NCBI GenBank assembly: GCA_965202665.1
Contig: OZ241841.1
Span: 1,996,189 to 2,060,188, forward strand
Source: Candidatus Spongiisociaceae bacterium
GTDB lineage: Bacteria; Actinomycetota; Acidimicrobiia; Spongiisociales; Spongiisociaceae
Direction: 5' to 3'
DNA: 64,000 nt
Shown in pieces: positions 30,501-57,052 of the stretch (the first letter of the stretch is position 1; each line of letters starts with the position of its first letter). The position numbers and the translations under genes are program-made. The notes beneath the pieces were generated by a model. That model did no database searches. It had not been told where the DNA came from and worked only from the letters and a program-made list of their open reading frames with translations.

Positions 30501-30993
30501 CCAGACCGGCAGGCCGTTCGACACCCCGGTCACGGTCGGCTACCTGTACCTGCTGAAACTGGCCCACCTGGTGGATCACAAGATTCACGCCCGCTCCACC
30601 GGCCCCTACTCCATGATCACCCAGCAACCGATTGGGGGGAAGGCCCAGTTCGGCGGACAACGGTTCGGGGAAATGGAGGTGTGGGCCCTGGAAGCCTACG
30701 GGGCCGCCTACGCCTTGCAGGAGTTGCTCACCATCAAATCGGACGATGTGTTGGGACGGGTCAAGGTGTACGAGGCGATCGTGAAAGGCGACAACATCCC
30801 CGAACCGAGCATTCCCGAATCTTTCAAAGTGCTCATCAAGGAAATGCAGAGCCTGTGCCTGAACGTGGAACTGTTGTCGGTGGGCGAAGAGGTGGACCTG
30901 CAGGAGCTGAGCGAAAAAAGCGACGAAGCGTACCGCACGGCTGAGGATCTGGGCATCGATATGTCCCGTCCTGAGAAGCGGGAGGAAAACTGA
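27571..30993 (+). CDS. rpoB: DNA-directed RNA polymerase subunit beta
   Basis: TTG 27571 lies 6 nt after AAGGAGG. ATG 27565 directly abuts the SD and is a less likely alternative. The translation is canonical RpoB ([17 protein letters not shown]; [13 protein letters not shown]). Confidence 0.95.
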
Positions 30994-31068
30994 CCCCTTC
31001 CCATCGACTGGAATGGGTCGGAACGGAAAGTCGAAATTTAGACGAAACACGGCGGCGAAAGGAGCAGT

Positions 31069-34000
31069 GTGCGCGAGCTGTTCGATGAACTGAAAATTGG
31101 TTTGGCGTCCTCCGATCAGGTGCGGTCCTGGTCGTTCGGGGAGGTGAAGAAGCCGGAGACCATCAACTACCGCAGCTTGAAGCCGGAGAAGGACGGGCTG
31201 TTCGACGAGCGCATTTTCGGTCCGCAGAAGGACTGGGAATGCTACTGCGGCAAATACAAGCGTTTTCGCTACCGGGGCATCGTGTGCGAAAAATGCGGCG
31301 TGGAGGTGACCCGCAAGGATGTGCGCCGGGATCGGATGGGCCACATCGACCTGGCCGCCCCGGTCACCCATATCTGGTTTTTCAAAGGAGTCCCCTCCCG
31401 GTTGGGGTATCTGCTGGACATGTCCCCCAAAAACCTGGAGATGATCATCTACTTTGCGGCCTACGTGATCACGGAAGTGGACGAAGGCAAACGGATGGTG
31501 GATCTGCCCGACCTGGAGGAGCAGATGCGGGCCGAGTTGGAAATTGTGGGGGAGGAGTTGGAGGAGTGGCGGTTGGAGCGGCTGTCCCGGTTGGAGAAGC
31601 AGGTGGAGCAGATGGAGGAGGCGGGGGCCAAGCTGGCGGAGGTGGCCACCGTGCGCCGCGAGGCGGAGCGGGAAATCAAGGATCGGGAGGAGAAAGCGGA
31701 GAAGGAACGCGAGTTGATCAAGGAGAGTTTTGCGGAATTTCGCGAGTTGCGTCCCAAAGATCTGGTGGAGCGGGAGGATTTGTGGAGGGAGATGCACGAA
31801 CGCTACTCGGCCTACTTCGATGGGGGAATGGGGGCGGAGGCGGTGAAGAAATTGCTGTCCAAGGTGGATTTGGACGCCGAGATGGAGGAGTTGCGGGAAG
31901 GTTTGCAATCATCGTCGGCGCAACGGAAACTGCGCTCCGGGCAACGTGTGAAGGTGGTGAAGCCCTTCTGGGAGGGCAAGCATTCGCCGGAGAGCATGAT
32001 TATAGAGGCGGTTCCGGTCATCCCGCCTGAGTTGCGACCCATGGTGCAGTTGGACGGGGGGCGCTTCGCCACCTCCGACCTGAATGACCTGTACCGGCGG
32101 GTGATTAACCGCAACAATCGCCTGAAGCGGCTGTTGGGGTTGAACGCCCCCGAGATCATCATCAACAACGAGAAGCGCATGTTGCAGGAGGCGGTGGACG
32201 CCCTGTTCGACAACGGGCGGCGGGGGCGGGCGGTGCCCGGTACCGGCAATCGTCCCTTGAAGTCTTTGACCGACATGTTGAAGGGCAAAGCGGGGCGGTT
32301 CCGGCAGAACCTGCTGGGGAAGCGAGTGGATTATTCCGGCCGGTCGGTGATCGTGGTGGGCCCGCAGTTGAAGTTGCATCAGTGCGGTTTGCCCAAGGTG
32401 ATGGCGTTGGAGTTGTTCAAGCCGTTCGTGATGAAGCGGCTGGTGGACCGGGATTTGGCGGCCGGCATCAAGGCGGCCAAGCGGATGGTGGAGCGGCAAC
32501 GTCCGCAGGTGTGGGACGTGTTGCGGGAGGTGATACAGGATCATCCGGTGTTGCTCAACCGGGCCCCCACTTTGCACCGGCTGGGGATTCAAGCTTTCGA
32601 ACCGTTGCTGGTGGAAGGCAAAGCCATACAGATTCATCCCCTGGTGTGCGAGGCTTTCAACGCCGACTTCGACGGGGATCAGATGGCGGTGCATCTCCCC
32701 TTGTCTCCGGAGGCGCAGGCCGAGGCGCGGGTGCTGATGCTGTCCACCAACAACGTACGTTCCCCGGCCAGCGGCCATCCCATCGTGTCCCCCTCCCAGG
32801 ACATGGTCATCGGCCTCTACTACCTGTCGGCGAATATCAAAAAAGAAGGCGCCTTGGGGACAGGCCGGTACTTTGCCGATCTGCCGGAGGCGTTGATGGC
32901 CTATGACTTGGGTGAGTTGGAAGTGCACGCCCCGATCAAAATTCGGATGGGCGATATGGCGGGCGACCCGCAGGTGCACGCCGAGCTGAAGGATCTGATC
33001 GGGTATCTGATCACCGACCAACCGGTGGATGGCCAGGTTCCGATGGACACCACTTTGGGCAAGGCCTTACTCAACCAAGCCCTGCCCGCCGATTTCCCGT
33101 TGATCGACGCTCCTTTGTTGAAGAGCGGCATCAAAGACCTGCTCGCTGAGATCATCGACCGCTACGACAAGGCGGTGGTGCAACGCACTCTGGACGGGCT
33201 CAAGGATTTGGGTTTCGCCTTTTCCACCCAGGCGGGGCTCACCGTGGGTTTGAACGATGTGACCACCCCGCTCGACAAGCCGAAGATACTTAACGAGGCG
33301 GAGGACAGGGCGCAGAAGAAGGAACGAGAGTACCAGCAGGGGAGCATTACCGCCCAGGAACGGGATCAGGAGTTAGTGGAGATTTGGAGCGAAGCCACCG
33401 AAGAGTTAACCCAGAAGGTGCGCACTTCCCTGTCCGATCAGGACTTCAACCCCATTGATATGATGATGAGCTCCGGCGCCCGGGGCAACATCATGCAGGT
33501 GCGCCAGATAGCCGGTATTCGCGGCTTGGTGGCTAACAACCGCGGACGCATCATCCCCCGGCCCATCAGGTCTAATTTCCGAGAGGGGATGACTGTGCTG
33601 GAGTATTTCATGTCCACGCACGGGGCCCGCAAAGGTCTGACCGACACCGCTCTGAAAACCGCCGACGCTGGTTATCTGACCCGCCGCCTGGTGGATGTGT
33701 CCCAAGAGATTATCGTCTCCGAAGAGGAATCGGAGGATCGGGGCATCGACATCCGCGTACGGGATGCAAAAGGCGATACCCTCCCCGACTTGCGCAACCG
33801 CATCTACGGGCGGGTGTTGGCCGAAGATGTGAAAGTGGATTACAAGTTGCGTATCACCCGCCCCGGTGATTCCAACTTCGAAGCTGGCCAAACCGTGGAG
33901 TTCACGAAGTTTGCGTCCGTCAAACGGGAGTTGTTGGAGGCTGGCAAAAAACCGGCCGAAGGTCGGCCGACGGGAGGTAAAACGGCCCTTACCAAGGATG

Positions 34001-35925
34001 GCGTGGCTCTGGAGGCGGGGGCGGTGATTGACCGCAAGGTGATGGTGGAACTGCAGGCTATGCCGGAAGTCGACTCGGTGCGGGTGCGTTCCCCGCTCAC
34101 CGACGAGATCCGGCACGGCATCAGCCGCGCTTCCTACGGGCTGAGCATGTCCACCAACCAACTGGCGGAACCGGGCGAGGCGGTGGGGGTGATGGCCGCC
34201 CAGTCCATCGGCGAGCCGGGCACGCAGCTGACCATGCGCACCTTTCATACCGGGGGGGTGGCCGATGAAACGGATATCACCCACGGCCTGCCCCGGGTGG
34301 TGGAGTTGTTCGAAGCCCGCTCCCCCAAGGGAAAGGCCATCTTGGCCGAGGCCAGCGGAAAAGTGCGCATTGACGATGGTGAAGAGGGGGTGCGCGCTTT
34401 GGTAATCGAATCCCCCCGGAGCGGGGAAGTCAAATACCGCTTGTCCCCCAACGCCCGGTTGCGGCCCGGGGTGCGAGAGGGGGGTGAAGTCGCCGCCGGA
34501 GATCAACTTACCGAAGGGCCGTTGGATCCCAAAGAGGTGTGCCTCATCAGAGGAGTGCGGGCCTGTCAGCAGTATCTGGTGGATCAGGTGCAGGATGTGT
34601 ACCGCAACCAGGGGGTGGAGATTCACGACAAGCACATCGAGCTGATCGTGCGGCAGATGTTGCGCAAAGTGCGCATCATCGAGCCCAACGACACCGATTT
34701 TCTGCCCATGCAGATGGTGGATCAGGGAGAGTTCCGGGACACCAACCGGGAGTTGGCGGCCGCGGGCAAGCAACCGGCCGAGGGCCGTCCGGAGCTGATG
34801 GGGATCACCAAGGCCTCGCTGGCTACCGAGTCCTGGTTGTCGGCCGCATCCTTCCAGGAAACCAGCCGCGTGCTCACCGAGGCGGCCATCAACGGACGCT
34901 CCGACTACCTGCGGGGACTGAAGGAGAACGTGATCATCGGCAAGCTGATTCCGGCCGGCACCGGTTCCGATGAATACCAGAAACTCCAACCCGAGCTGTC
35001 CCAGGCGCAGATAACACCCCCCTTGACCGGAGCCGACTGGTTGGCCGTGCGGGAGATGGAAGTATTCACCGAAGAGGTCGCCGGTGAGGCCGAGGATAAG
35101 GCCGCCCAAGCCGAGGAGGCCCGGGCCAGGGCGGAGGAGAAAAAGGCGGAGGTGAACGCCGCCACTGACGATGCCGAGAAATATACTTTGAGGAGGGAAA
35201 GAGACGAAGAATATGAACGGGCCGCCCGCTATGACCGGGAGGCGGCCGAGGAGGAGGAGCGGGCCGCGGCCCGCAAGTTGGCCCATGCCCAAGCGAAGGC
35301 GGAGGAGGCCGAGGAAGCCGAAGCGGCCGCCCAGGAGAAAGAGTTGGAACAGGCTCGCAAAGAGGCGGAAAAGGCCCGGCAAGCGGTGGAGAAGGCCCGG
35401 GAGAAGGAAGACAAGGCCGCCAAAACGCGCCGGGAGAGGGCCGCCAAAGAGGCGCAAAAATGGAAGGATCGGGCACAGCGGGCATTGCGAGAGGCCGAAG
35501 GGAAGCAGAAGCAGGTGGCTGATAAAACGGAGCAGGCTAAAGCCGCGCTGGATATAAGCGCAAAGGTGGATTTGGCGCGGCAGGTCGTGTCTGAATCCGA
35601 GAAGGTGATCCAAGGCGTACGGGAAGCGAGGAAAGCGGCAACGGTAGCCCAGGAGGCTGAAGTTAAGGCTGAGCTGGAAGATACAGAAGCGCCGCAGGTA
35701 ATAGAGGACGCCGAACAGGTGATCCTAGATGTGGAGCAAAAGGTTCAGGAGTTGCGGGCCTCGCTGGATGCTCCCCAACAGGATGCGGGAGCTATTGACA
35801 GATCCCTCGACGAGAACCGCGAGTCCTTGACGAGGATGGCCGTTACCTTGCAGAAGTTCACCGACTGGTTGAAAAAAATCGGCGAGCTCGTCGCCGATGC
35901 CCTAAAGAAACTGCTGGGAGGGTAA
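31069..35925 (+). CDS. rpoC: DNA-directed RNA polymerase subunit beta-prime with ~290-aa C-terminal coiled-coil extension
   Basis: The GTG start follows AAAGGAG. Canonical RpoC motifs ([12 protein letters not shown]; GKLIPAGTG at about residue 1291) are followed by about 290 further residues rich in E/K/A/R, up to residue 1618. Confidence 0.95.
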
Positions 35926-35927
35926 GA

Positions 35928-36284
35928 TTGTCGTACGGGGAATCTCTTAACCCGCTTCAGCTTTTTGGGGCGGCGCCCTTCGCTGGCCACGAGGGCAATC
36001 CGGCGGACTTCTCCCGTACGCTTAACGCTGTTCGGATTGGCGTTTCATGGAAGGGTCCTTTCAGTGATGCCATACAACTCATCGAGGCCGCTACTAAGTT
36101 GCCCGTGACGGCCGGCGGGGAGTTGGAGGGGCATATGGCGATCGCGGCGGGGAAAGCCATCGAGGCGGTAATGGGGCAAGTCTTTGAACTGCAGGCGGAG
36201 GCGCGCCGGTGCTTTTCTGCGGAGGCCATCGCCCATGCCGAGCGATGGCTGGCGGAAAACAGCCCCGCTGGAAACGGACGATGA
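35928..36284 (+). CDS. hypothetical 118-aa protein with a central W-x-G motif
   Basis: The TTG start is 2 nt after the rpoC stop, and the ORF ends 33 nt before the rpsL promoter. SWKGPFSDAIQ (W41-K-G43) resembles the WXG100 turn. Codon usage is atypical and no homolog is recognised. Confidence 0.4.
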   Translation: MSYGESLNPLQLFGAAPFAGHEGNPADFSRTLNAVRIGVSWKGPFSDAIQLIEAATKLPVTAGGELEGHMAIAAGKAIEAVMGQVFELQAEARRCFSAEAIAHAERWLAENSPAGNGR

Positions 36285-36316
36285 GGCGCGTGGCGGTTGC
36301 GAAAGGGGTCCCTGTT

Positions 36317-36346
36317 TTGACATAGCGGCGGGCCGGTCTGTATAAT
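36317..36346 (+). promoter_or_regulatory. rpsL-operon promoter
   Basis: TTGACA (36317..36322), an 18-nt spacer, then TATAAT (36341..36346). A ~185-nt leader follows. Confidence 0.65.
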
Positions 36347-36535
36347 GCGGGCCGTGCTTGCGCACATATTTACTCTCGTGCCCTGAGGGCCGGTGGTCCC
36401 GCCGCTGGCAACCGCAAGGTGGCGGGAACCCACACAAGAGAGTTGGCGCGTCGCATCGCCGGCGGGCCGATTACAGAAAACGAACGGGCAGGGTTGCCCG
36501 CGTCTTGCGCGCCTGCCCGCCCGCGAGGAGCAATT

Positions 36536-36907
36536 TTGCCAACCATACAACAGTTGGTGCGCCGGGGCCGCAAGCCCAAGGCGCGCAAGGAGAAGACGCC
36601 GGGTCTGGCCGGTTCCCCCCAGCGGCGGGGGGTGTGCACCCGCGTCTACATCATCACCCCCAAAAAGCCCAACTCCGCCCAGCGCAAAGCGTGCCGGGTG
36701 CGGCTCACCTCGGGAGTGGAGGTGACCGCCTACATCCCCGGCGAGGGGCACAACCTGCAGGAGCATTCCATCGTGCTCATCCGGGGCGGCCGGGTGCGCG
36801 ACTTGCCCGGGGTGCGTTACAAGGTCATCCGGGGGGCTTTGGATGCGGCCGGCGTGGACGGCCGCCGTCAGGCCCGTTCCCGCTACGGAACGAAACGGGA
36901 GCGATAA
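36536..36907 (+). CDS. rpsL: 30S ribosomal protein S12
   Basis: The TTG start is 5 nt after AGGAG. (M)[11 protein letters not shown]...[10 protein letters not shown]... Confidence 0.95.
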
Positions 36908-36908
36908 G

Positions 36909-37376
36909 ATGCGCCGCGCCCCCGCTCAACGCCGCCAGATCGAACCGGATCCGTTGTTCCGCAACATGCTGGTATCCCAGATAATCAACCAGGTTTTGCT
37001 GCGGGGCAAAAAGAACAAAGCCCGGCGCATCGTCTACGGGGCCTTGGAGTTGGTGGAAAGCCGCAGCGGCCAGGATTCCATACAGGTGTTGAAGCGGGCC
37101 ATCGACAACCTCCGTCCGCAGGTGGAGGTGCGCACCCGCCGGGTGGGGGGCACCTCCTACCAGGTGCCGATGGACGTCCGCCCCCGCCGCGCCTCCACTT
37201 TGGCCATCCGCTGGCTGATCGGGTTCGCCCGCCGCCGCCGGGAGAAGTCCATGGCCCATCGGCTGGCCGCCGAAATTATGGATGCCGCCAACAACACCGG
37301 GGCGGCCGTCAAACGCAAAGAAGACGTCCACAAGATGGCCGAATCCAACAAGGCCTTCGCCCACTACCGCTGGTAA
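36909..37376 (+). CDS. rpsG: 30S ribosomal protein S7
   Basis: [17 protein letters not shown]...NKAFAHYRW. Confidence 0.95.
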
Positions 37377-37380
37377 GACA

Positions 37381-39483
37381 ATGAGCTCCCCCCTTGCCCG
37401 ACTCCGTCAGTTTCCGCTGAGCCGCACTCGCAACATCGGGATCATGGCCCATATCGACGCCGGCAAGACCACCCTCACCGAGCGGGTCCTCTACTACACC
37501 GGACGCACCTACAAGTTGGGCGAGGTGCACGAGGGGGCGGCGGTGATGGACTGGATGGAGCAGGAGCAGGAGCGGGGCATCACCATCACCTCCGCCGCCA
37601 CCACCTGCGAGTGGCATGAGCATTGGATCAACATCATCGACACCCCCGGCCATGTGGATTTCACCGTGGAGGTGGAACGTTCCTTGCGGGTGCTGGATGG
37701 GGCGGTGGCCGTCTTCGACGCGGTGGCCGGCGTGGAGCCGCAGTCGGAGACTGTTTGGCGGCAGGCCGACCGCTACGAGGTGCCCCGCATCTGTTTCATC
37801 AACAAGATGGACCGGGTGGGGGCCGACTTCTACGCGGCCGTGGATTCCATCCGTGACCGGTTGGACGCCGTTCCGCTGGTGATGCAGATCCCGATCGGCT
37901 CCGAAGCCGGGTTCACCGGGGTGGTGGACCTGGTGGAGATGAGGGCGCACACCTGGCAGGGCGACGACGGCCGCACTTGGAACACCGGCCCCATCCCCGA
38001 TGAATATCTGGCGACCGCCTCCGAATACCGGGGCCGGATGCTGGAGCAGGTGGCGGAAGTCGACGAGAAACTGCTGGAGAAGTACCTGGAGGACTTGGAC
38101 ATTTCCCCGGGCGAGATCACCATGGCGGTGCGGGCGGGCGTCCTGCAACATTTATTCAATCCGGTGCTGTGCGGGGCCGCTTTCAAAAACAAGGGAGTGC
38201 AACTGTTGCTGGACGCGGTGGTGGATTACCTGCCCAGCCCGGTGGACCTGCCCGCCGTGTCCGGGTTCGTCCCCGGTCGCGAGGATCAGACTTTGCATCG
38301 CCCCCCCGCCGACGACCAGCCCTTCTCCGCCTTGGCCTTCAAAGTGATCAGCGACCCGCATGTGGGCAAACTCACCTATTTCCGAGTTTATTCCGGCCAA
38401 GCCTCCAAGGGCGGAACCCTGCTCAACACCGCCAGCGGGCGCAAGGAACGGCTGGGACGCCTGTTGCGCATGCACGCCAACCATCGGGAGGACCGGGAGG
38501 ATGTGTTCACCGGCGATATCGTGGCCGCGGTGGGACTGAAGCACACCACCACCGGCGACACCCTCAGCTCCGTGCGGGACCCGATCGCCTTGGAGTCGAT
38601 GTCCTTTCCGGCTCCGGTGATTTCGGTGGCTATCGAACCCCGTTCCAAGGCCGACCAGGAAAAATTGTCCGAGTCACTCAGCCGGTTGGCCGAAGAGGAC
38701 CCCACCTTTTTGGTGCGCTCCGACGAAGAAACCGGGCAGACCATCATCTCCGGGATGGGCGAGTTGCATTTGGACATCTTGGTGGACCGGCTGGTGCGGG
38801 AGTTTCGGGTGGACGCCAATGTGGGCCGCCCGCAGGTGGCCTACCGGGAAACCATCCGCGGCCCGGTGGAGAAGATGGAGGTGCGCCATATCAAGCAGAG
38901 CGGCGGCCGGGGCCAGTATGCGGTGGTGGTCGTTTCTTTGGAGCCCACCGGTCCCGGGGGCGGCTTCGAGTTCGTGGACGAAATCAAAGGAGGCTCGGTT
39001 CCCCGCGAGTTCATCCCCTCCGTCTCGGCCGGCATCCAAAACGCCCTGGACCAGGGGGTGCTGGCCGGCTATCCGCTGGTGGACGTACGGGCCCGCTTGG
39101 TGGACGGCTCCGCCCACGATGTTGATTCCTCGGAGATGGCTTTCCGCATCGCCGGGTCCCTGGCCCTGCGGGAAGCGGCCCGCCGGGCGGGCGTCAAAAT
39201 GCTGGAGCCGGTGATGGCGGTGGAGGTGGTCACCCCCGAGGAATATATGGGGGAGGTCATCGGCGACCTATCCGCCCGGCGGGGTAGAATAGGGGAAACC
39301 AACCAGCGGGGTTCGGTGCGGGTGGTAACCGCCCGGGTTCCGTTGGCCGAAATGTTCGGATACGTGACCGACCTGCGGTCCAAGACCCAGGGCCGGGCCA
39401 CTTCCACCATGCAATTTCATTCATACGACGACGTGCCCGAGCAGGTCGCCGGCGAGATAGTAGCCGCCGCCCGCGGCGAATAG
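37381..39483 (+). CDS. fusA: elongation factor G
   Basis: The ATG is at 37381. [21 protein letters not shown]... The 33 N-terminal codons of the track ORF are the rpsG overlap frame. Confidence 0.95.
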
Positions 39484-39500
39484 AACAGGAGGTAAGGGAA

Positions 39501-40691
39501 ATGGGGAAGCCGAGGTTTGAGCGTTCGAAGCCGCATGTGAATGTGGGGACGATGGGTCATATTGATCATGGGAAGACGACGTTGACGGCGGCGGTGACGC
39601 GGGTGTTGGCGGAGCGGGTGGGGGGTGTGAATGTTTTTTCGGCGTTTGATGAGATTGATAAGGCTCCGGAGGAGCGGGAGCGGGGGATTACGATTTCGAT
39701 TGCGCATGTGGAGTATGAGACGGAGAGTAGGCATTATGCGCATGTGGATATGCCGGGGCATGCGGATTATATTAAGAATATGATTACGGGGGCGGCGCAG
39801 GTGGATGGGGCGGTGTTGGTGGTGTCGGCGGCGGATGGTCCGATGCCGCAGACGAGGGAGCATGTGTTGTTGGCGAGGCAGGTGGGGGTGCCGTGTGTGG
39901 TGGTGGCGTTGAATAAGGTGGATTTGGTGGATGATGGGGAGTTGTTGGATTTGGTGGAGTTGGAGGTGCGGGAGTTGTTGGGGGAGTATGGGTTTGATGG
40001 GGATGGGGCTCCGGTGGTGCGGGTGTCGGCGTTGGGGGCGTTGGAGGGTGATGTGGGGGCGGGGGATGGGGTGATGGAGTTGTTGGGGGCGGTGGATGAG
40101 TTTGTGCCGGTGCCGGAGCGGCCGGTGGATTTGCCGTTTTTGATGCCGATTGAGGATGTGTTTTCGATTACGGGGCGGGGGACGGTGGTGACGGGGAAGG
40201 TGGAGGCGGGGGTGTTGCGGGTGGGGGGGGATGTGGAGGTGGTGGGGATTAGGGAGACGAGGAGGTCGGTGGCGACGGGGGTGGAGATGTTTCGTAAGTT
40301 GTTGGATGAGGGGAGGGCGGGGGATAATGTGGGGGTGTTGTTGCGGGGGGTGGGGAAGGATGAGGTGGAGCGGGGGCAGGTGTTGGCGGCTCCGGGGTCG
40401 ATTACGCCGCATACGGTGTTTGAGGCGCAGGTGTATGTGTTGACGAAGGAGGAGGGGGGGAGGCATAATCCGTTTTTCTCGGGTTATCAGCCGCAGTTTT
40501 ATTTTAGGACGACGGATGTGACGGGGAAGGTGGAGTTGCCTGGGGGGGTGGAGATGGTGATGCCGGGTGATAACACGACGATGACGGTCACGTTGGGGTC
40601 TCCTATTGCGATGGACGAGGGTTTGCGGTTCGCCATCCGGGAGGGGGGCCGCACGGTGGGGGCGGGCACCGTCACCCAAATCCACAAGTAA
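39501..40691 (+). CDS. tuf: elongation factor Tu (codon usage highly anomalous, see findings)
   Basis: AGGAGG lies 8 nt upstream. [31 protein letters not shown]...[23 protein letters not shown]... Confidence 0.95.
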
Positions 40692-40719
40692 CCGACAAGA
40701 ACCGAACGGGAACGGGAAG

Positions 40720-41028
40720 ATGAAAAACTACAAGATCCGCATCAAACTGAAGGCGTACGATCACCAGGTGATCGACGAGTCGGCGCGCAAGATCGCCGAA
40801 ACCGTTATCCGCACCCAAGCCACCGTGCGCGGCCCCATCCCCCTTCCCACCAAGATCCAGCGCTACTGCGTCATACGTTCCCCGCACGTTTATAAAGACT
40901 CCCGCGAGCATTTTGAGATACGAACCCACAAGCGGCTGTTGGACATCCTCGATCCCACCCCCAACACGGTGGAGTCCCTGATGCGCTTGGACCTGCCCGC
41001 CGGGGTGGAAGCGGAGATCGAGACATGA
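40720..41028 (+). CDS. rpsJ: 30S ribosomal protein S10
   Basis: [21 protein letters not shown]... Confidence 0.95.
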
Positions 41029-41660
41029 GTTTGACCACCATTGTCGGCGAAAAGGTGGGGATGACGCAGATCTTCGATGAGGAGGCGCGGGCCCTCCCGG
41101 TAACGGTTATCAAAGCCGGCCCCTGCCGTATCGTCCAGATACGCACCCCCGAAACCGACGGCTATTCCGCCGTCCAGCTCGGTTACGGCCAAGCCCGCGG
41201 CGCCAATCGCCCCGTTTCCGGTCATTACGCCAAAGCCGGGGTGGAGCCCGCCCGGCGGTTGGTGGAAGTGCGGGTGGACGATGTTTCCGAGTTTGCGGTG
41301 GGGCAGGAGATCAAGGTGGAGGACATTTTCCAGCCGGGCGGCAAGGCGGATGTAACCGGCGTTTCCAAAGGCAAAGGTTTCCAGGGGGTGATGAAACGAC
41401 ACAACTTCCGGGGTCAGAAGGCCAGCCACGGCGCCCACAAAATCCATCGCGCTCCGGGGGCCATCGGGGCTTGCGCCACCCCCGCCCGGGTGTTCAAAGG
41501 AACCAAGTTGCCGGGCCGCATGGGGGCGGAGCGGGTCACCGTCCTCAACTTGGCGGTGGTGGGCGTGGACGCCGAACAGGGCCTGCTTTTACTGCAGGGG
41601 GCGGTGCCCGGCCCCAAAGGGGCGATGGTGTTCGTGCGGGAGGCGGTCAAGAATGCCTGA
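41025..41660 (+). CDS. rplC: 50S ribosomal protein L3
   Basis: ATGA overlap; ...[23 protein letters not shown]... Confidence 0.95.
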
Positions 41661-42486
41661 TCTGTCCGCCCCCCTCTACGATTCCGCCGGAACCGAAAAG
41701 GGAGAGGTGGAGTTGGACGCCGACCTGTTCGGGGTGGAACCCAACCGGGCGGTGATGCACCAGGCGACGGTGGCCTATTTGGCGGGACGGCGGTCGGGAA
41801 CCGCCAAAGTCAAATCCCGCTCCGAAGTGCGGGGGGGAGGCCGCAAGCCTTGGCGGCAGAAAGGTTTGGGACGGTCCCGGCACGGGTCCATCCGCTCGCC
41901 CCTGTGGGTGGGGGGCGGCTCCGCTCACGGACCCCGGCCCCGCACCTACGCCCAGCGCACCCCCAAGAAGATGCGCGGCTTGGCCCTGCGCAGCGCCCTG
42001 TCCTGCCGGGCGGCGGAAGGGGCGGTGAAAGTGGTGGAAGATTTTGAATGGGACGTCCCCCGCACCCGGCGGGCGGCCGAGTTGCTAGCCGCCATCGGGG
42101 CGGACGGCAAGGCCTTGGTGGTGTTGGCCGGCGGGCAGGGGACGGCCGAAGCCTCTTTCCGCAACCTGCCGCAGGTGATTTTGGGCCGGGCGGGCCACCT
42201 TAACGCCTATGACGTGCTCTGGTCGGACACGGTGGTGTTTTCCGGTTCGGCCCTGTCCTATCCGGATCCGTTCGTCGCTCCCGGACAGGAAGCAGTCCCC
42301 GCCGCCGATTCCGAAGAAGATGTTCCCCTCCCCGAATCTCCCCCAACCGGGGAAACCGATGAAGGCGAGGCCCCGGTTGCCGAAACTCCGCCCGCGGACT
42401 CCGATTCCGAATCAGATTCCGAATCTGCGCCGGAGGGCGGGGAAGAGGACTCCGGGGAAGAAGAAGAGGAGGGGGCGAATGTCTGA
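41653..42486 (+). CDS. rplD: 50S ribosomal protein L4 with ~60-aa acidic C-terminal tail
   Basis: ...[26 protein letters not shown]... The tail is ...[28 protein letters not shown]. Confidence 0.95.
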
Positions 42487-42766
42487 TCCCCGCGACCTCA
42501 TCCTGGAGCCGGTGGTGTCGGAGAAGTCCTACGATCTCATCGAGCAACACAACACCTACACCTTTTTGGTGGATCGGCGGGCCACCAAAGATCAGATCCG
42601 CCACGCTATGGAGCGGATCTTCGATGTGCGGGTGGTCAAGGTCAACACCCTCATTCGCCGCGGCAAACGCAAGCGCACCCGATGGGTGATGGGGCGCCGT
42701 TCCGACATCAAGCGGGCCATGGTCACCTTGGCCCCCGGCGATTCCGTCGACGTGTTCGGGGTGTGA
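42479..42766 (+). CDS. rplW: 50S ribosomal protein L23
   Basis: [20 protein letters not shown]... Confidence 0.95.
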
Positions 42767-42767
42767 G

Positions 42768-43601
42768 ATGCCGGTCCGAGGCCGCAAGCCCACTTCGCCC
42801 GGACGCCGCTTCCAGACGGTCTCCGATTTTGCCTCCGTCACCAAAGACAAGCCGGAGAAGTCGCTGCTGGCCAAGCAGAAGCGTTCTTCGGGCCGCAACA
42901 CCCACGGCCGCATCACCTCCCGGCATCGGGGCGGCGGCCACAAGCGCCGCTACCGGATCGTGGATTTCCGCCGGGAGAAGGACGCGGTTCCGGCCAAGGT
43001 GGCGGCGGTGGAATACGACCCCAACCGCAACGCCCGCCTCGCCCTGCTCCACTACTTGGACGGCGAAAAACGCTACATCCTGCATCCGGCGGGGGTGCAG
43101 GTGGGGGACATCTTGCAGTCCGGTTCCGGGGCCGAAATCCGGCCCGGCAACGCCCTGCCTTTGCGCAACATTCCGGCCGGGGCCATCGTGCACGCGGTGG
43201 AGTTGCGGCCGGGCGGGGGGGCCAAGATGGTCCGGTCGGCCGGGGCCGGGGCGCAGCTGATGTCCAAAGAGGCTGGGCGGGCCCTGTTGCGCCTGCCGTC
43301 CGGCGAGGTGCGCAATGTTCCTTTGGACTGCCGGGCCACCATAGGACAGGTGGGCAACGCCGAGGCCGAATTAATCAAAATCGGCAAAGCGGGCCGCAAC
43401 CGCTGGAAGGGGGTCCGCCCCCAGACGCGGGGAGTGGCCATGAACCCGGTGGATCACCCGCTGGGCGGCGGCGAGGGCAAGTCCTCGGGCGGACGGCATC
43501 CGGTGTCCCCCTGGGGCAAGCCGGAGGGCCGCACCCGGGACCGCAACAAGGCCAGCAACCGGGACATCGTACGCAGGCGGACCCGAAAGCGCCGGAGGTA
43601 G
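42768..43601 (+). CDS. rplB: 50S ribosomal protein L2
   Basis: ...[23 protein letters not shown]... Confidence 0.95.
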
Positions 43602-43604
43602 GAA

Positions 43605-43886
43605 ATGGCCCGCAGTCTCAAAAAAGGCCCCTTCGTGGACGGTCATTTGCTCCGCAAGGTGGAGGCCCTCAACCGCAGCGGCCAAAAGAACGTCATCCGC
43701 ACTTGGAGCCGGCGCAGCACCATCATCCCCGATATGGTGGGTCACATCATCGCCGTGCACGACGGCCGCAAGCACGTGCCGGTTTACATTTCCGAGTCCA
43801 TGGTGGGGCACAAATTGGGCGAGTTCGCCCCCACCCGCACATTTCGCGGCCACGCCGGGAGCAAAGAGAAGGCGGCCGGAAGATGA
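43605..43886 (+). CDS. rpsS: 30S ribosomal protein S19
   Basis: [16 protein letters not shown]... Confidence 0.95.
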
Positions 43887-44248
43887 GGGCCGTCGCCCAC
43901 GCCCGCTATATTCGCCAGTCGCCCTACAAGGTGCGTTTGGTGCTGGATCAGGTGCGGGGGCGCCCGGCGTCCGAGGCGCGGACGGCCCTGCGCTTCTCCA
44001 ACCGCCGCGCCGCCGGCCCTATCTTGAAATGCCTGGATTCGGCCATCGCCAACCTCAACTCCAAGTTTGATCTGGGGCAGGACGTGGATTCTCTGGCCGG
44101 CGAAGTGAGGGTGGAGGAGGCTTACGCCGGCGAGGGGCCGACCCTGAAAAGGTTCCGTCCCCGGGCCCGGGGGCGGGCCGCCCGCATCCGCAAGCGCACC
44201 AGCCATATCACGATTGTGGTTTCCGATGAACGGGAGGAGAGGGAATAG
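43883..44248 (+). CDS. rplV: 50S ribosomal protein L22
   Basis: [26 protein letters not shown]... Confidence 0.95.
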
Positions 44249-45279
44249 TGGGGCAGAAAACCCACCCGTACGGGTTCCGTTTGGGCATCGTCACTGACTG
44301 GAAGTCGCGTTGGTTCTCCAACAAGGAATACCAGGACCTGGCCAATCAGGATTATCAGATCCGCGACTACCTGTGGCGGGAGTTGGCGCGGGGGGCGGTG
44401 TCCCGCATCGATGTGGAACGCACCCGCGACAAGCTGGTGGTGGAGGTGCACACCGCCCGTCCCGGGGTGGTGATCGGACGCAAAGGGGCGGAGGCGGACC
44501 GCATCCGCAACGGTTTGGAGAAGATGGCGGGCCAACCGGTGAAGTTGAACGTGGTGGAGGTGAAAGAGCCCGACTCCGACGCCCTGTTGCTGGCCCGGGG
44601 AGTGGCCGACCAGTTGGAGAACCGGGTGGCTTTCCGCCGGGCTATGAAACGGGCGGTGCAGACGGCGCTGACCGCCGGGGCGGAAGGGGTGCGCGTGGAA
44701 TGCTCGGGCCGCCTGGGCGGGGCCGATATGGGACGCCGGGAATGGTACCGGGAGGGACGGGTGCCTTTGCATACCCTGCGGGCCGACATTGACTACGGCC
44801 GGGCCACGGCCCGCACCACGGTGGGGGCCATCGGCGTCAAAGTGTGGGTCTACAAGGGGGATCTGGTTTCTTCTTTGAAGACCACCCGCGAGAAAATCGC
44901 CGCTGAGGCGGCCCTGGCCGCGGGCGGTCCCGCCGGACGGGTGATTTCGGCCAAGAGCCGGGCCGAGCAACGCACCGGCGAACGCAAGACCCCCCGCGTC
45001 ATCGAAGCGGGGGGCGGCAAGCGCCTGATCGAAGCGGGCGGCGGCCGCAAGGTGACCGCGGCCGAGGCCCGTTCCGAATACCGGGAGGCGGTGGAGGATC
45101 AAGAGGAGAAACTGGACATCCTGTCCGACTCCGGGGCCGATGAGGCGGGCGACTCTGATGCCGGGGAGCATACCCCGGAGGAGAGGGTCGGGGCGCCGGG
45201 TGATGGGACGGCGCCCGCCGACGGGACGGCCGAGGATTCGGATCCCCCCTCCTCCGAGGCGGGCGGGGAGGAAGAATAA
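44248..45279 (+). CDS. rpsC: 30S ribosomal protein S3 with ~115-aa C-terminal extension
   Basis: The start is [25 protein letters not shown]... The tail contains the tandem [18 protein letters not shown] and an acidic end. Confidence 0.95.
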
Positions 45280-45692
45280 TGTTGATGCCCAAACGCACCA
45301 AGTACCGCAAGGTGCACCGGGGCCGCATGCGGGGCTACGCCAAGGGCGGGTCCGCCGTTTCCTTCGGCGACTACGGGATCCAGGCCTTGGAGCCGGGGCA
45401 CATCACCGCCCGCCAGATCGAGTCGGCCCGGGTGGCCATCACCCGCACCGTGCGACGGGGCGGCAAGGTGTGGATAAATATTTTCCCGGACAAGCCGATG
45501 ACGGCCAAACCGGCTGAGACCCGCATGGGATCCGGCAAAGGCAACCCCGAGTTCTGGGTGGCGGTGGTCAAACCGGGGCGGGTGATGATGGAGTTGTCCG
45601 GGGTGGGCGAGGATTTGGCCCGGGAGGCGATCCGCAAGGCGGGCCACAAGTTGCCCATCAAAACCAAGTTCGTGGTGAGGGAGACCGGATGA
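45279..45692 (+). CDS. rplP: 50S ribosomal protein L16
   Basis: [19 protein letters not shown]... Confidence 0.95.
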
Positions 45693-46126
45693 AGACTTAC
45701 GAAGCGCGCGAGATGACCTATGCGGAGCTGGTCGAAAAGTTGGAGGAGGCCAAGGATGACCTGTTCAACCTGCGCTTCCAGCTGGCGGTCAGCCAATCCG
45801 ACAACACCGCCCGCTTGGGCGAGTTGCGCCGGGACATCGCCCGCATGAGAACCGTGCTCAACGAATGGGAGCGGGACGGCCGCCCCCTCGGCTACGAAGA
45901 GGGGGAATATGAATGGGAGTCCCCGCCAGTCGACGAAACCGACGCCGAATTCCCAGAGGAGGAAGAAGCGGCGGCGGAGGAGGAGGATGCAGGGCCGATT
46001 CTGGAGGAGGAGACGGCGGCCGCTCCGTCCGATGAGCAAGAAGAGCAGGATGATGATTCCGTCGAGGAGCAAGCGGAGGAGGATGCCAAGCCCCGCCGCC
46101 GCTGGGGCAGGCGGAGTAAGAAATGA
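45689..46126 (+). CDS. rpmC: 50S ribosomal protein L29 with ~80-aa acidic C-terminal extension
   Basis: ...[21 protein letters not shown]... is followed by a tail rich in E/D ([13 protein letters not shown]...). Confidence 0.9.
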
Positions 46127-46386
46127 ACCAGGCTTCGCGTCCCCGCCGCAAGACCCGCACCGGGATAGTCATTTCCAACGCCCGGGACAAAACGGTCACC
46201 GTGCAGGTGAGGCGCGCCACCCGCCACCCCCGTTACGGCAAGATCGTGCCCGCTTTTAAAAACTTCCACGCCCATGACGAGGACAACGAATCCCGGGTGG
46301 GGGACCGGGTGCGCATCGTGGAAACCCGTCCCCTGTCCAAGACCAAGCGCTGGCGGGTGGCGGAGATTGTGGAGCGAGCCCGATGA
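46123..46386 (+). CDS. rpsQ: 30S ribosomal protein S17
   Basis: ...[21 protein letters not shown]... Confidence 0.95.
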
Positions 46387-46751
46387 TCGGACAGGAGTCC
46401 CGTCTCAAAGTGGCCGACAACAGCGGCGCCCGGGAGGTGCTATGCATCCGCGTGCTGGGCGGTTCCCGCCGTCGCTACGCCCGGGTGGGGGATATGATCG
46501 TGGCCACCGTCAAAGAGGCCTCCCCCGGTTCCAACGTGCGCAAAGGGGAGGTGGTGAGGGCGGTGGTGGTGCGCACCGCCAAAGAACAACGGCGCCGGGA
46601 CGGAACCTACATCCGGTTCGACGACAACGCCTGCGTGTTGCTCAACGACCAGCGCCTGCCGCGCGGCACCCGCATTTTCGGCCCGGTGGCCCGCGAGTTG
46701 CGCGACCGGCGGTTCATGCGCATCGTTTCGCTGGCCCCGGAGGTGCTGTGA
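46383..46751 (+). CDS. rplN: 50S ribosomal protein L14
   Basis: [25 protein letters not shown]... Confidence 0.95.
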
Positions 46752-47056
46752 TGGCCGTTCGGGAAGGAGACCGGGTGATGGTGATCACCGGCAAGGACAA
46801 GGGACGGGAGTCCCGCGTGTCTAGGGTCATCCCCGATCGGGGGCAGGTAATCGTGGAAGGGGTGAACGTGGTGAAGCGCCACCAACGTTCCACCGGCCGC
46901 ACCCTGCAGGCGGGGATCATCGAAAAGAACATGCCCATTGACATTTCCAACGTGATGCTGATGTGCCCGGAGTGCGGCCCGGTGCGCACCGGGGCCGGTT
47001 TCGACGAAGCGGGAAACAAGTTCCGCCGGTGCGTGAAATGCGATCAGGAGATCTGA
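46751..47056 (+). CDS. rplX: 50S ribosomal protein L24 (with CxxC...CxxC motif)
   Basis: [18 protein letters not shown]... The C-terminal part reads CPECG...CVKCD. Confidence 0.9.
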   Translation: MAVREGDRVMVITGKDKGRESRVSRVIPDRGQVIVEGVNVVKRHQRSTGRTLQAGIIEKNMPIDISNVMLMCPECGPVRTGAGFDEAGNKFRRCVKCDQEI

Positions 47057-47643
47057 TGGCGGACTCCGCAAACGGCCAAACTCCCCCGCCCCGTTTCAAA
47101 GTCCGTTACCGGGAGTTCGTGCACGCCCACCTGCAGGGGAAGCTGGGTTTGGACAACCCGATGCTGGTGCCCGACTTGGACAAGATAGTGGTCAACATGG
47201 GGGTGGGGGAGGCGGTGGCCGACGGCAAGCAGATCACCTCGGCCATGGAGGAGCTGGCGGTGATCACCGGTCAGAAGCCCCGCCTCAACCGGGCCAAACG
47301 TTCCATCGCCAACTTCAAAGTGCGGGCCGGCAATCCGGTGGGGGCGTCGGTCACCATGCGCGGCGACCGGGCTTGGGAGTTTCTGGATCGCCTGATTACC
47401 ATTTCCATACCCCGCATCCGCGATTTCCGGGGACTCAACCCGCGGGCTTTCGACGGACGGGGCAACTATTCTTTCGGGGTGAGCGAACAGCTCATTTTCC
47501 CGGAGGTTGATTACGACAAGGTGACGGCCGTGCGCGGCATGGACATCACCATATGCACCACCTCCGCCGACGACGAGGGGGCGGCCGCCTTTTTGGAAGC
47601 TTTCGGCTTTCCGTTCCGCGGTACCACCCCCACCGCGGTGTAG
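47056..47643 (+). CDS. rplE: 50S ribosomal protein L5
   Basis: ...[11 protein letters not shown]...RGMDITI.TT... Confidence 0.95.
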
Positions 47644-47668
47644 GCGGACCGGGCAAGGAGAGCGCAAG

Positions 47669-47974
47669 ATGGCAAAAAAATCAATGATCGCCAAAAACAA
47701 GCGGCGCCAAGAGTTGGTTGCCCGCTACCGGGAGCGACGGTCCGAAGCGCTGGCCGTGATCAAGAACCCGGAAGCCTCTTTGGAGGACAAGCGGGAAGCC
47801 TATGACCTGATCGCCAAGATGCCCCGCGACGCCAGTCCCACCCGCAGCCGCAATCGGTGCCGGGTGAGCGGCCGGCCGCGCGGTTACCTGCGCCGCTTCG
47901 GCATGTCCCGGATTGCGGTGCGGGAGTTGGCCCATCGCGGCGAATTGCCGGGCGTGGTCAAGTCCTCCTGGTAA
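47669..47974 (+). CDS. rpsN: 30S ribosomal protein S14 (long, non-zinc form)
   Basis: [17 protein letters not shown]...[11 protein letters not shown]. It is 101 aa and has no CxxC pairs. Confidence 0.95.
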
Positions 47975-47999
47975 GGCGACGGGCAAGGAGAGAAGCGAC

Positions 48000-48401
48000 A
48001 TGATGACCGACCCCATCGCCGACATGCTCACCCGCATCCGCAACGGCAACCAGGCTTTGCACAAGGTGGTGACCATGCCCTCCTCTAAAATGAAGGAGGA
48101 GATCGCCAAATTGCTGGCCTTCGAGGGCTATGTGGACGGATACGACGTTTCCCCCGCCCCCCAGGGCAAGGAGCTCAGCATCCGCCTCAAATACACCGGC
48201 CGCTCCGACCGGGACCCCATCTTGCGCGGCTTGCGCCGGATTTCCAGCCCCGGCCGTCGCATCTACCAGGGGGCGGGCGAACTGCCCCGTTCCCAGGGCG
48301 GCCTGGGCACCATCGTGGTGTCCACCTCCGAGGGACTGATGTCCGACCGGGAGGCCCGCCGCCGCCGGCTGGGCGGCGAGATAGTTTGCGAAGTTTGGTG
48401 A
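48000..48401 (+). CDS. rpsH: 30S ribosomal protein S8
   Basis: MMTDPIADMLTRIRNG... Confidence 0.95.
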   Translation: MMTDPIADMLTRIRNGNQALHKVVTMPSSKMKEEIAKLLAFEGYVDGYDVSPAPQGKELSIRLKYTGRSDRDPILRGLRRISSPGRRIYQGAGELPRSQGGLGTIVVSTSEGLMSDREARRRRLGGEIVCEVW

Positions 48402-48426
48402 GCGGGGCGAGGGCGAGGAGCAACGG

Positions 48427-48978
48427 ATGAGCAGGATCGGACGGCTTCCCATTCCCATTCCCGACGGGGTGGAAGTGGAGGTCCGGGAGGGCGCCCGCCC
48501 CCGAGTGACCGTCACCGGTCCGAGGGGGGCGTTGGAACGCACCTTCGGCGAGCGGGTGGCGGTGACCGTGCGGGACGGACAGTGCCTGGTGACCCGCATG
48601 AACGACGAAGCCCCCTCCCGCGCCCATCACGGCCTGACCAGGGCCCTGCTCAACAACATGATCATCGGGGTTTCCCAAGGCTACAGCAAGACTTTGAAGA
48701 TCGTGGGGGTGGGCTACCGGGCGTCCGCCAAAGACGGAGGATTGGATATTCAGATCGGTTTCAGCCACAATGTGGAGGTTTCCGGCGTGGAGGGAGTGGA
48801 ATTCGACGTTCCCGATCCCACCACCATCATCGTGAAAGGCCGCGACAAGGAGTTGGTGGGCCAAGTGGCGGCCGACATTCGCAAAATCCGCCCCCCCGAG
48901 CCCTACAAGGGCAAGGGCATCCGCTACGAGAACGAATACGTGCGACGCAAGGGCGGCAAGACGGGAGTGACCACCTAA
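48427..48978 (+). CDS. rplF: 50S ribosomal protein L6
   Basis: [17 protein letters not shown]... Confidence 0.95.
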
Positions 48979-49346
48979 TGAGCGACATCCAAATTTCCCG
49001 CCGGCGCCGCCTGGGACGACTGCGCCGCCACCGGCGGGTGCGCAAGGGCCTGTCGGGCGCCGCCGACCGCCCCAGGTTGGCCGTGTTCCGCAGCAACCGT
49101 TACATTTACGCCCAAGTGATCGATGACTCCTCCGGGCGTACTTTGGCCGCCGCTTCCTCCCAGGAATCGGATTTGCGGGAACGCACCCTCACCGTGCAGA
49201 CCGCTTCCGCGGTCGGGACGTTGCTGGCCGAGCGGGCGGCCGCGGCCGGCGTGGAGCGGGTGGTGTTCGATCGGGGCGGTTACGCCTATCACGGCCGGGT
49301 GAAAGCCTTGGCCCAAGCAGCCCGGGAGGCCGGCCTTGACTTCTAG
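48978..49346 (+). CDS. rplR: 50S ribosomal protein L18
   Basis: ...[20 protein letters not shown]... Confidence 0.95.
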
Positions 49347-49890
49347 AAGAGATTCCCAGCCCGGCGCCCCCTACGACGAGCGGGTGGTGCAGATCAACCG
49401 GGTGGCCAAGGTGGTGAAAGGCGGGCGCCGGTTTTCATTCACCGCCCTGGTGGTGGTGGGGGACGGTGAAGGACGGGTGGGGGTCGGCTACGGCAAAGCC
49501 AAGGAGGTGCCGTCCGCCATTCAGAAGGGGATCGAGGCGGCCCGCCGGGCCATGTTCACCGTTCCCATGGCGGGCACCACCATCATCCACGAGGTGATGG
49601 GACGGCAGGGGGCGTCGCGGGTGTTGCTCAAGCCCGCCTCCCCCGGCACCGGGGTGATCGCCGGTGCGGCGGTGCGCCAGATTCTGGAAGCGGCCGGGGT
49701 GCGGGACGTCTTGGGCAAGTCGCTGGGTTCGCCCACCCACTTGAACGTGGCCAAAGCCACGGTCAACGCCTTGCGCTCCCAGTTGCGCCCGGAGGAGGTG
49801 GCGGCCGCCCGGGGCAAAACGCCGGAGGAGGTGACCCCTCCCGCCCTGCTGGCCGCCTACCGCTCAGCTGAGATGGCCCGGGCCGACTGA
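49336..49890 (+). CDS. rpsE: 30S ribosomal protein S5
   Basis: The TTG start overlaps the rplR end. ...[28 protein letters not shown]... Confidence 0.9.
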
Positions 49891-49913
49891 CGGCGGGAGA
49901 AAGAGGTTTCCCG

Positions 49914-50123
49914 ATGGCCGAAAAGTCACCCGCCCCATCCGGCAGGTTGCGCATAACTTTGCGGCGCAGCCTGATCGGGGAAAAGCCCAAAACCCGGGCC
50001 ACGGTGCGCGGTTTGGGCCTGCGCCGCATTGATTCCGTCGTGGAGCACGCCGACACCCCCGACGTCCGGGGCATGGTGCGGCGGGTCATCCACCTAGTGG
50101 AAGTGGAAGAGGTTTCCCGGTGA
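49914..50123 (+). CDS. rpmD: 50S ribosomal protein L30
   Basis: ...[27 protein letters not shown]... Confidence 0.9.
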
Positions 50124-50650: not shown

Positions 50651-50684
50651 CCGGTCGGCCGATGTTTCATCCGGAGGCGGCGGG

Positions 50685-52007: not shown

Positions 52008-52018
52008 ACGTTCCCGGC

Positions 52019-57045: not shown

Positions 57046-57052
57046 GTTTCTC

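Follow-up and report, generated by a model that had tools for sequence, protein, structure and literature searches.

The tuf gene of a Candidatus Spongiisociaceae bacterium is written almost entirely with codons ending in G or T. The gene encodes the elongation factor EF-Tu (396 aa) and lies at 39501..40691 on the + strand of a 64,000 nt stretch of contig OZ241841.1 (assembly GCA_965202665.1, positions 1,996,189 to 2,060,188), which was analysed as a whole and is called the window below. It belongs to the str operon, and the genome has a second, identical copy elsewhere. The recoding is extreme, it recurs, and it affects a core gene together with its protein. Among the explanations considered we put first, while stopping just short of calling it probable, a strand-asymmetric biased gene conversion between the two tuf copies, with the mismatch-repair nuclease NucS/EndoMS as the likely filter.

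Third codon positions of tuf

The share of third codon positions that are G or T is termed K3. The open reading frame (ORF) of tuf consists of 396 codons and the stop codon, with G at 291, T at 89, C at 15 and A at 2 third positions. Its K3 is 0.96 vs 0.37-0.63 in about 50 other genes of the window. The initial annotation had read the codons up to 40571 as ending only in G or T, except for one TTC at 40476, with none ending in A, and the recount agreed with it: 356 of codons 1-357 end in G or T, TTC at 40476 is the single exception, and A-ending codons number 0/357. At p=0.49 the chance of 356/357 is ~1e-108. The pattern begins at codon 2, and K3 is 1.00 across eight consecutive 40-codon bins of this keto-only body (39504..40571, + strand, 356 codons). 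The remaining C/A-ending codons are all situated at or 3' of AAC 40572.

The preferences for single amino acids were also as first described. All Leu codons are TTG (29/29), Ile is encoded by ATT in 12 cases and by ATC twice, both times within the tail, and in the two-fold pyrimidine boxes of the body NNT is used in 60/61 cases. The Arg codons are CGG (13), AGG (10), CGT (2) and CGC (1), i.e., AGG has a share of 10/26 vs 17/404 in the background gene set. Four-fold sites carry mostly G, not T. The share of C at third positions (C3) falls from ~0.42 to 0.04, the share of T (T3) is 0.22 vs about 0.09, and the G+C share (GC3) is 0.77 vs 0.77-0.88. TTG is by itself unusually common as a Leu codon given the 64% GC of this genome, being found 146 times among 387 Leu codons of background genes (rpoB, rpoC, fusA, ribosomal proteins) vs 177 times for CTG.

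Abrupt boundaries had been proposed for the recoded stretch. At the 5' end this holds, as the skew starts at the ATG; the 3' boundary is a graded transition zone (40572..40628, + strand) with mixed third positions, in which AAC, GTC and GAC occur among G/T-ending codons (K3 0.87, alignment columns 356-378). It is followed by a 3' tail (40629..40688, + strand) consisting mainly of C-ending codons. Seven of the last eight codons, GGC ACC GTC ACC CAA ATC CAC AAG, end in C or A, and CAA represents a Lys-to-Gln change. With a K3 of 0.40 the tail is at about the ordinary level.

The two adjoining genes served as controls, and both have ordinary codon usage. In fusA (EF-G; 37282..39483, + strand), situated upstream in the same operon, the third positions are C 315, G 292, T 68 and A 59, and K3 is 0.49 overall and 0.43 in the last 60 codons. 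In rpsJ (S10; 40720..41028, + strand), situated downstream, there are 50 C and 33 G, and K3 is 0.35 in the first 60 codons. These counts bear out the earlier statement that both neighbours use C-ending codons. The spacers flanking tuf show no G/T skew. Among the window genes a skew of this kind is found in tuf only, and its operon neighbours keep C-ending codons.

The gene has the attributes of a functional EF-Tu gene, namely an intact ORF, three domains, the G-motifs and a location between fusA and rpsJ. The translation contains the motifs G1 (GHIDHGKT), DMPGH and NKVD, and the protein looks normal, with its GTPase motifs intact. Pfam GTP_EFTU, D2 and D3 are recorded for a protein identical to the window EF-Tu, and the close homologues of the product are all EF-Tu. 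On the non-template strand of tuf we counted 13 canonical G-quadruplex motifs (four runs of >=3 G with loops of 1-7) vs 0.7 expected for the protein in background codons. These motifs could matter for R-loops, replication or translation.

Directional change in EF-Tu

EF-Tu is among the most conserved and most expressed bacterial proteins, and tuf is a textbook case of optimal codon usage. The recoded tuf overturns this codon usage, and its EF-Tu is pushed toward Gly and Val. Compared with ordinary genes, the G/T share of the window tuf is higher at first (0.65 vs 0.50) and second (0.52 vs 0.45) codon positions. The protein has more Gly (51 vs 34 residues) and Val (58 vs 40) and less Lys (12 vs 23) and Ile (14 vs 25). 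Relative to the EF-Tu of ordinary Acidimicrobiia, recoded EF-Tu proteins have lost 5-7 points of identity to Streptomyces.

We defined conserved positions as those first and second codon positions at which >=75% of ordinary genes agree (15 normal tuf genes). At these positions the window tuf shows 51 changes from A/C to G/T vs 2 in the reverse direction, with a ratio of about 1:1 in ordinary genes. Residue shifts in the A-to-G and C-to-T directions, which the initial annotation had suspected, are thus borne out by count. Broken down by base, they comprise A>G (22), C>T (17), A>T (9) and C>G (3) on one side and G>A (1) and G>C (1) on the other; T>A was found 0 times vs 9 for A>T. The split is one between keto (G/T) and amino (A/C) bases and not plain avoidance of C, A being lost as readily as C.

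Two narrower candidates were rejected on these grounds. Avoidance of C for reasons of RNase E or Rho does not fit, as A is lost to the same extent and the leaders are rich in C. Effects of queuosine or of isoacceptors do not fit either, as Phe, Ile and Cys switch to T too.

The initial annotation had also considered a deaminase-type, strand-asymmetric hypermutation. The direction of the changes is the one that such a process would give. Confinement to the ORF common to both tuf copies, the unaffected genes of the same operon, the A>T excess and the reversed composition found at the 3' end (see below) are left unexplained by it. Hypermutation of this kind should consist of transitions only and be free of boundaries, whereas A>T (9 vs 0 for T>A) and C>G (3) occur, four-fold sites are mostly G, and the skew has boundaries at the ATG and near the stop codon. 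Templated mutagenesis by a diversity-generating retroelement was rejected as well, since the changes affect A and C and not adenine alone; no genes of such an element were found among the called neighbours of either tuf copy or the scanned window genes.

A choice at the level of translation seems improbable to us. It could consist of a use of codons for rarely used C34 tRNAs that stay charged in starvation, of a regulatory decoding by wobble only, or of a long ramp of slow codons. The onset of the pattern at codon 2 and its restriction to the ORF would suit such a choice, as would the existence of dedicated isoacceptors for NNG of the four-fold boxes, for TTG and for AGG/CGG. However, NNT and NNC of the two-fold boxes share one tRNA, yet NNT is used almost exclusively in the body, and the ribosomal-protein genes of the same operons stay C-ending. 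The changes at first and second positions, the amino-acid shift and the reversed tail would also be left without explanation.

A second, identical tuf copy

Loci outside the window are referred to by handles (L001 and so on). A second tuf copy, for which the initial annotation had advised a search, was found on L001 and shows 0/1191 differences from the window tuf. It is preceded by tRNA-Tyr, tRNA-Thr and tRNA-Met and followed by rpmG, secE, nusG, rplK and rplA, while the context in the window is rpsL-rpsG-fusA-tuf-rpsJ. The identity of the two copies ends exactly at the ATG and the TAA, and their flanks are unrelated. L002 is a contig of 1191 nt and represents the collapsed repeat. The source genome therefore holds two identical tuf copies in the classical tufA/tufB arrangement. 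The adjoining untranslated sequence is C/A-rich, in the leader of the second copy as well as in the two downstream spacers.

Related loci have the same architecture. L083 and L084 share a circular 3.18-Mb contig, on which they are separated by 534 kb, and show 3 differences; L088 and L089 show 4. In these two pairs tuf alone is recoded, and fusA, rpsJ, rpsL, rpmG, nusG and rplK are ordinary. Near-identical coding sequences between unrelated flanks, as expected for concerted evolution, were found for window/L001, L083/L084, L088/L089 and the Deinococcota-type pair L121/L143 (0/753 differences).

Some further assemblies show mixed upstream and downstream contexts of the two copies, i.e., fusA-tuf-rpmG or acetyltransferase-tuf-rpsJ (L098, L103, L105, L094/L095 and, for the latter order, L104). 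For the protein P0298 all four combinations of upstream and downstream context occur in public assemblies, most likely as chimeric joins across the identical repeat. The same identical repeat is the cause of many carrier contigs being just 1.2-3 kb long. Short-read assemblies thus break or mis-join at the tuf repeat.

Moving boundary and reversed tail in relatives

One close relative is Candidatus Spongiisocius sp., of the class Acidimicrobiia. Binned K3 profiles were compared with those of 15 ordinary actinobacterial tuf genes, which have a K3 of 0.38-0.49, are mostly C-ending and prefer NNC. The G/T-only stretch ends at codon ~75 in L086/L087, ~270 in L085, ~325 in L083/L084, 357 in the window and ~388 in L088/L089 and L003. 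In the last 20 codons K3 is 0.00 in L086, 0.05 in L083, 0.10 in L085 and 0.10 in L004, compared with a mean of 0.41 and a minimum of 0.30 in ordinary genes. A-ending codons make up 20-35% of the last 20 codons in those relatives vs 5% in ordinary genes, and the tail is reversed in this sense. In L086 the K3 declines almost linearly from 1.0 to 0.0 along tuf.

Identity of EF-G groups the window with L084 and L088 with L086/87, followed by L004 and then L003; all of these are recoded. The recoding is thus old, order-wide within a clade of Acidimicrobiia and vertically inherited. The point at which the bias crosses over has shifted both ways among the relatives, which share derived residues on both sides of the boundary. 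A front moving one way from 5' to 3' was rejected, since L086 has the amino-acid shift throughout the body yet C/A third positions in its 3' part. The bias had been suggested to become a lineage-wide preference if relatives shared it without boundaries. It is indeed common to the relatives, in tuf only, and its boundary position differs among them.

These observations also bear on the local events that the initial annotation had listed, a mosaic allele that arose by horizontal gene transfer or by one conversion event, with its 3' crossover near 40570..40620, and on an assembly or synthetic artefact. The change of codon style within the last 40 codons is what a mosaic would show. However, the whole pattern, down to an identical tail, is present in each of the two genomic copies, the boundary is found anywhere from codon ~75 to ~388 in the relatives with derived residues common to both sides, and the EF-G comparison indicates vertical descent through an order-level clade with differing boundaries. 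The artefact is excluded by the recurrence of the same sequence in independent assemblies with several contig-naming conventions. Taken as one group, these accounts are contradicted by the observations and very hard to credit.

In NCBI the tuf of L086/L087 (protein P0026) carries the label 'Gemmatimonadetes bacterium'. By fusA, rpsJ and tuf alike, this locus belongs with the Spongiisocius-like Acidimicrobiia, and the short contig was probably mis-binned.

A proposed keto-biased gene conversion and the role of NucS

The bias is confined to the sequence that the copies share, separates keto from amino bases, is strand-specific, changes sign along the gene and suffices to fix amino-acid changes, and this combination points to heteroduplex formed between the two copies. 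NucS/EndoMS is the mismatch-repair nuclease of organisms without MutS-MutL. In vivo it repairs G-G, G-T and T-T only, and other mismatches escape (PMC11551767). NucS also suppresses homeologous recombination, i.e., recombination between diverged repeats (PMC8228993, PMC5290159). The bias of tuf splits G/T from A/C in the same way as the G-T, G-G, T-T set of the enzyme.

The proposed mechanism would operate as follows. Gene conversion, in which a recipient strand pairs with the complementary donor strand, keeps the two tuf copies identical, and the mismatch activity would recognise keto-keto mismatches (G-T, G-G, T-T) only. Depending on the direction of transfer, a difference between the copies would then be exposed either as a keto-keto or as an amino-amino mismatch (A-C, C-C, A-A). 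Transfer of a G/T allele over an A/C allele would yield an amino-amino mismatch and pass, and the reverse transfer would yield a keto-keto mismatch and be cut or rejected. G/T alleles on one strand would therefore spread to the sister copy and never be overwritten, and new A/C alleles would be erased. If conversion settled each mutation well ahead of the next, the result would be a near-irreversible pressure from A/C to G/T. This pressure would be restricted to the region of homology, i.e., the ORF; it would saturate the silent sites and also fix mildly harmful amino-acid changes. The two sides of the initiating break would expose opposite strands, so that the sign of the bias would be opposite at the two gene ends, with the crossover point set by where lesions start. 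The mechanism presupposes that NucS is present in the recoded genomes, that the heteroduplex has the required polarity and that codon selection is too weak to resist.

In a wider form, which we hold a little more loosely than its application to this gene, the proposal would describe a new evolutionary force. Keto-biased gene conversion from the narrow specificity of NucS/EndoMS might act on any converting pair of repeats and, in lineages with weak codon selection, lead to a near-complete rewriting of an essential gene, with dozens of directional replacements in EF-Tu and a bipolar signature of G/T followed by A/C.

Two keto-only copies on one contig, L112 and L120 (both on PVMK01148048.1), have 13 differences within about 130 nt (629-758), and the G/T-vs-A/C differences run in both directions. 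With a filter for keto-keto mismatches, a patch of this type would block conversion in either direction. The homology of L112 and L120 extends about 45 nt beyond the stop codon into an A/C-rich spacer.

Taxonomic spread

Recoded tuf genes are not limited to the relatives described above. A second clade of Acidimicrobiales (L071, L092-L095), with 72-74% protein identity to the window, has a K3 of 0.91-0.97, and its tuf is found in two upstream contexts. A further relative of this clade, L101, has ordinary codons. The tuf genes of Ilumatobacteraceae- and Microthrixaceae-like organisms are partly shifted, and the Ilumatobacteraceae-like ones also occur in two copies. Two of the latter, L015 and L102, encode EF-Tu proteins ~97% identical and have a K3 of 0.78 and 0.56, respectively; by this comparison the keto shift can change fast between close relatives.

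After the NucS hypothesis had been formed, contigs from metagenomes were screened for two universal EF-Tu motifs in G/T-only coding. The screen returned 45 matches, all with a body K3 of 0.87-1.0: 31 are Acidimicrobiia-like, 9 of Deinococcota type and 3 Alphaproteobacteria-like, 1 is nearest to the tuf of L014/L080 (records labelled Actinomycetes), and 1 was unplaced. The Deinococcota-type proteins have 78-83% identity to Thermus thermophilus EF-Tu, including its insertion, and their EF-G is also closest to Thermus. The flanks of these contigs have 64-71% GC, and both genomic contexts are present. Two proteobacterial loci with a K3 of about 0.75 (L082, L016) were not counted, as only about half of their two-fold codons end in T.

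Among Bacteria, NucS is reported from Actinobacteria and Deinococcus-Thermus only, and 41 of the 45 keto-only matches fall into these two phyla. Its distribution within them is patchy. It is present in Ilumatobacter coccineus, in several Deinococcus species, among them D. maricopensis, D. soli, D. swuensis, D. gobiensis and D. proteolyticus, and in Marinithermus hydrothermalis, and absent from Acidimicrobium ferrooxidans, D. radiodurans, T. thermophilus, Meiothermus and Truepera.

Several points weigh against the proposed role of NucS in a biased conversion. L096 and L097 show 0 differences and are separated by 22.6 kb on a single scaffold, yet their codons are ordinary (K3 0.44); having tuf in two identical copies is thus not enough. 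The patchiness of NucS could account for ordinary two-copy relatives of this kind. The keto-only tuf genes of L125, L132 and L135 look alphaproteobacterial, and this group is not known to have NucS. Their flanks have 34-36% GC, tuf has a K3 of 0.92 with a T3 of about 0.6 and 0.06 A at third positions, and the adjoining rpsJ has a K3 of 0.51-0.64. The second Acidimicrobiales clade and the Deinococcota-type genes have no clearly reversed tail. Furthermore, we infer the presence of NucS in the recoded genomes, and this is the central link of the argument. A nucS gene was not found in the window or the fetched loci with a NucS query sequence, which shows only its absence beside tuf. The sign of the bias, finally, hinges on where the lesion starts and on the fate of the cut heteroduplex, which may be lost or repaired toward the donor. 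Therefore the model predicts the form of the pattern and not its direction.

Selection on the mRNA or damage to exposed DNA as possible alternatives

We considered two alternatives that do without biased conversion. First, selection could act at the RNA level for a weakly structured or C-poor tuf mRNA, poor in RNase E or Rho sites, with conversion merely keeping the copies alike. Without one of the two partners in every Watson-Crick pair, the ORF would form little structure, and a message in the highest demand would be translated more or last longer. The initial annotation had named such an mRNA among its candidates, and a weaker predicted folding was indeed found: -369.6 kcal/mol for the tuf mRNA vs -544 +/- 12 for the same protein in background codons (25 samples), or -0.31 per base vs -0.41 to -0.44 for fusA, rpoB and rpoC. 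Such selection would also be ORF-limited and tuf-specific, and the recoding arose in >=3 phyla, as convergent selection would yield. However, A-ending codons, which are best at lowering structure, are missing from the body, A is purged as thoroughly as C and is replaced as often, and the adjoining untranslated regions noted above are C/A-rich. L086 shows the full gradient without structural gain (-0.423 per base), and the A/C-only tail of several lineages adds complementarity to the body. The G-quadruplex motifs (13 vs 0.7 expected) also count against it, and a benefit at the nucleotide level would have been bought dearly with 51 directional replacements at conserved residues of a very conserved protein. 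The concentration of recoded genes in NucS-bearing phyla would be left without a reason. We consider selection on the mRNA unlikely. If it were nevertheless the cause, tuf would be the most extreme natural case of ORF-wide sequence design for expression.

Second, the sense strand could be exposed unusually often as single-stranded DNA, displaced in D-loops when the two copies recombine or in R-loops owing to the heavy transcription of tuf, and its amino bases would there be deaminated or lost. Conversion of C to U and of A to hypoxanthine would give changes from A/C to G/T without a special mismatch enzyme. Deamination turns amino bases into keto-pairing ones, and transitions do dominate (A>G 22, C>T 17). 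Exposure in D-loops would be limited by homology and switch strands across a break, which fits the data on tail and flanks, and being independent of NucS it could cover the three alphaproteobacterial cases. In contrast, exposure linked to transcription should also hit fusA, rpsJ, rpmG and the leaders, which are unaffected. The A>T excess of 9:0 and the wholesale replacement of C by G at four-fold sites need extra assumptions, and L096/L097, two converting copies, show no such bias. Most bacteria with two converting tuf genes, such as E. coli and Salmonella, have not been reported to have a keto bias, which we also count against damage of this kind. Its probability appears to us to be low.

Comparison with known systems

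The recoded tuf shares features with several known systems. In the concerted evolution of tufA and tufB in Salmonella and E. coli, one copy is likewise situated in the str operon and the other behind tRNA genes ahead of secE-nusG, and near-identity covers the coding region only. Classical tufA/tufB conversion homogenises the copies without reshaping their composition, whereas here the free positions have lost nearly all A and C and the protein has drifted.

GC-biased gene conversion is similar in that a repair bias in heteroduplex mimics directional selection and can fix mildly harmful alleles. It favours G+C on both strands, whereas the bias of the recoded tuf is strand-specific and changes sign along the gene. 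C3 falls and T3 rises, and the GC3 of 0.77 is no higher than that of the neighbours.

Strand asymmetries due to replication or transcription, including those of spirochaetes, show the same split of keto and amino bases with knock-on effects on codons and a Val/Gly-rich protein composition. They are modest and extend over replichores or transcription units, whereas the bias of tuf is near-total and affects one gene. Its direction fits, as tuf lies on the G-rich strand of the window, but the other window genes have a K3 of 0.37-0.63 and the flanks are unskewed. The codon bias of highly expressed genes does not apply either, since tuf has a C3 of 0.04 and its ribosomal-protein neighbours keep C.

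Clustered, strand-coordinated mutations at DNA breaks resemble the recoded tuf in having a strand-specific bias whose sign flips across the break. Such clusters arise as single somatic or laboratory events, are made up of transitions in a sequence context and reach into resected flanks, whereas the recoded tuf represents an evolutionary equilibrium, is limited by homology and includes transversions toward G/T.

NucS/EndoMS mismatch repair has a substrate set that equals the keto/amino partition of tuf, and it acts on the recombination of diverged repeats. In the literature searched we came across neither a keto-only tuf nor a NucS footprint on duplicated genes. For M. tuberculosis, one preprint raises, as speculation only, a reshaping of paralogous regions by repair asymmetries that accompany recombination (PMC13061034).

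If a repair bias is the cause, a non-adaptive drive can override codon selection and protein constraint in core genes, tuf phylogenies and codon-adaptation indices would mislead in recoded lineages, and the specificity of NucS would gain a visible evolutionary consequence. The tuf signature would, under keto-biased conversion, report where recombination starts and which strand is transferred. In uncultured bacteria, NucS action would thereby have a natural read-out encoded in the genome, namely the recoded tuf.

Other features of the window

A codon-aligned antisense ORF of 422 aa (39417..40685, - strand) overlaps tuf. Its restricted set of residues had been offered as an independent read-out of the recoding. 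Over 39501..40571 its translation contains only R, H, P, L, I, Q, K, N, T, M and S, as had been claimed, and in addition one E, which stems from the TTC codon of tuf. The frame is open because antisense stop codons start with T and need A-ending sense codons, of which the body of tuf has none. We rejected the ORF as a gene; it is an automatic by-product of G/T-ending sense codons.

The remainder of the window is ordinary chromosome, and its genes comprise transporters, PEP carboxylase, folate/formate enzymes, rplJ-rplL-rpoB-rpoC and the S10/spc/alpha ribosomal operons. Pfam scans of 20 window proteins gave ordinary metabolism, transport and ribosomal genes, with no reverse transcriptase, deaminase or recombination gene among them. 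Rfam at gathering thresholds gave no family in the window (1..64000), ribosomal-protein leaders of the S10/spc/alpha stretch included.

The longest fusA ORF, starting at 37282, shares its first bases with the end of the ORF before it (36843..37376). As homologues are about 700 aa long, translation probably starts near 37381 (MSSPLARL...). The usual rplKAJL cluster is split in this genome between L001 (14816..15849) and the window (26161..27262): rplK-rplA are found with the second tuf copy and rplJ-rplL-rpoB-rpoC in the window, where they are preceded by an AAA-ATPase gene (24786..25970).

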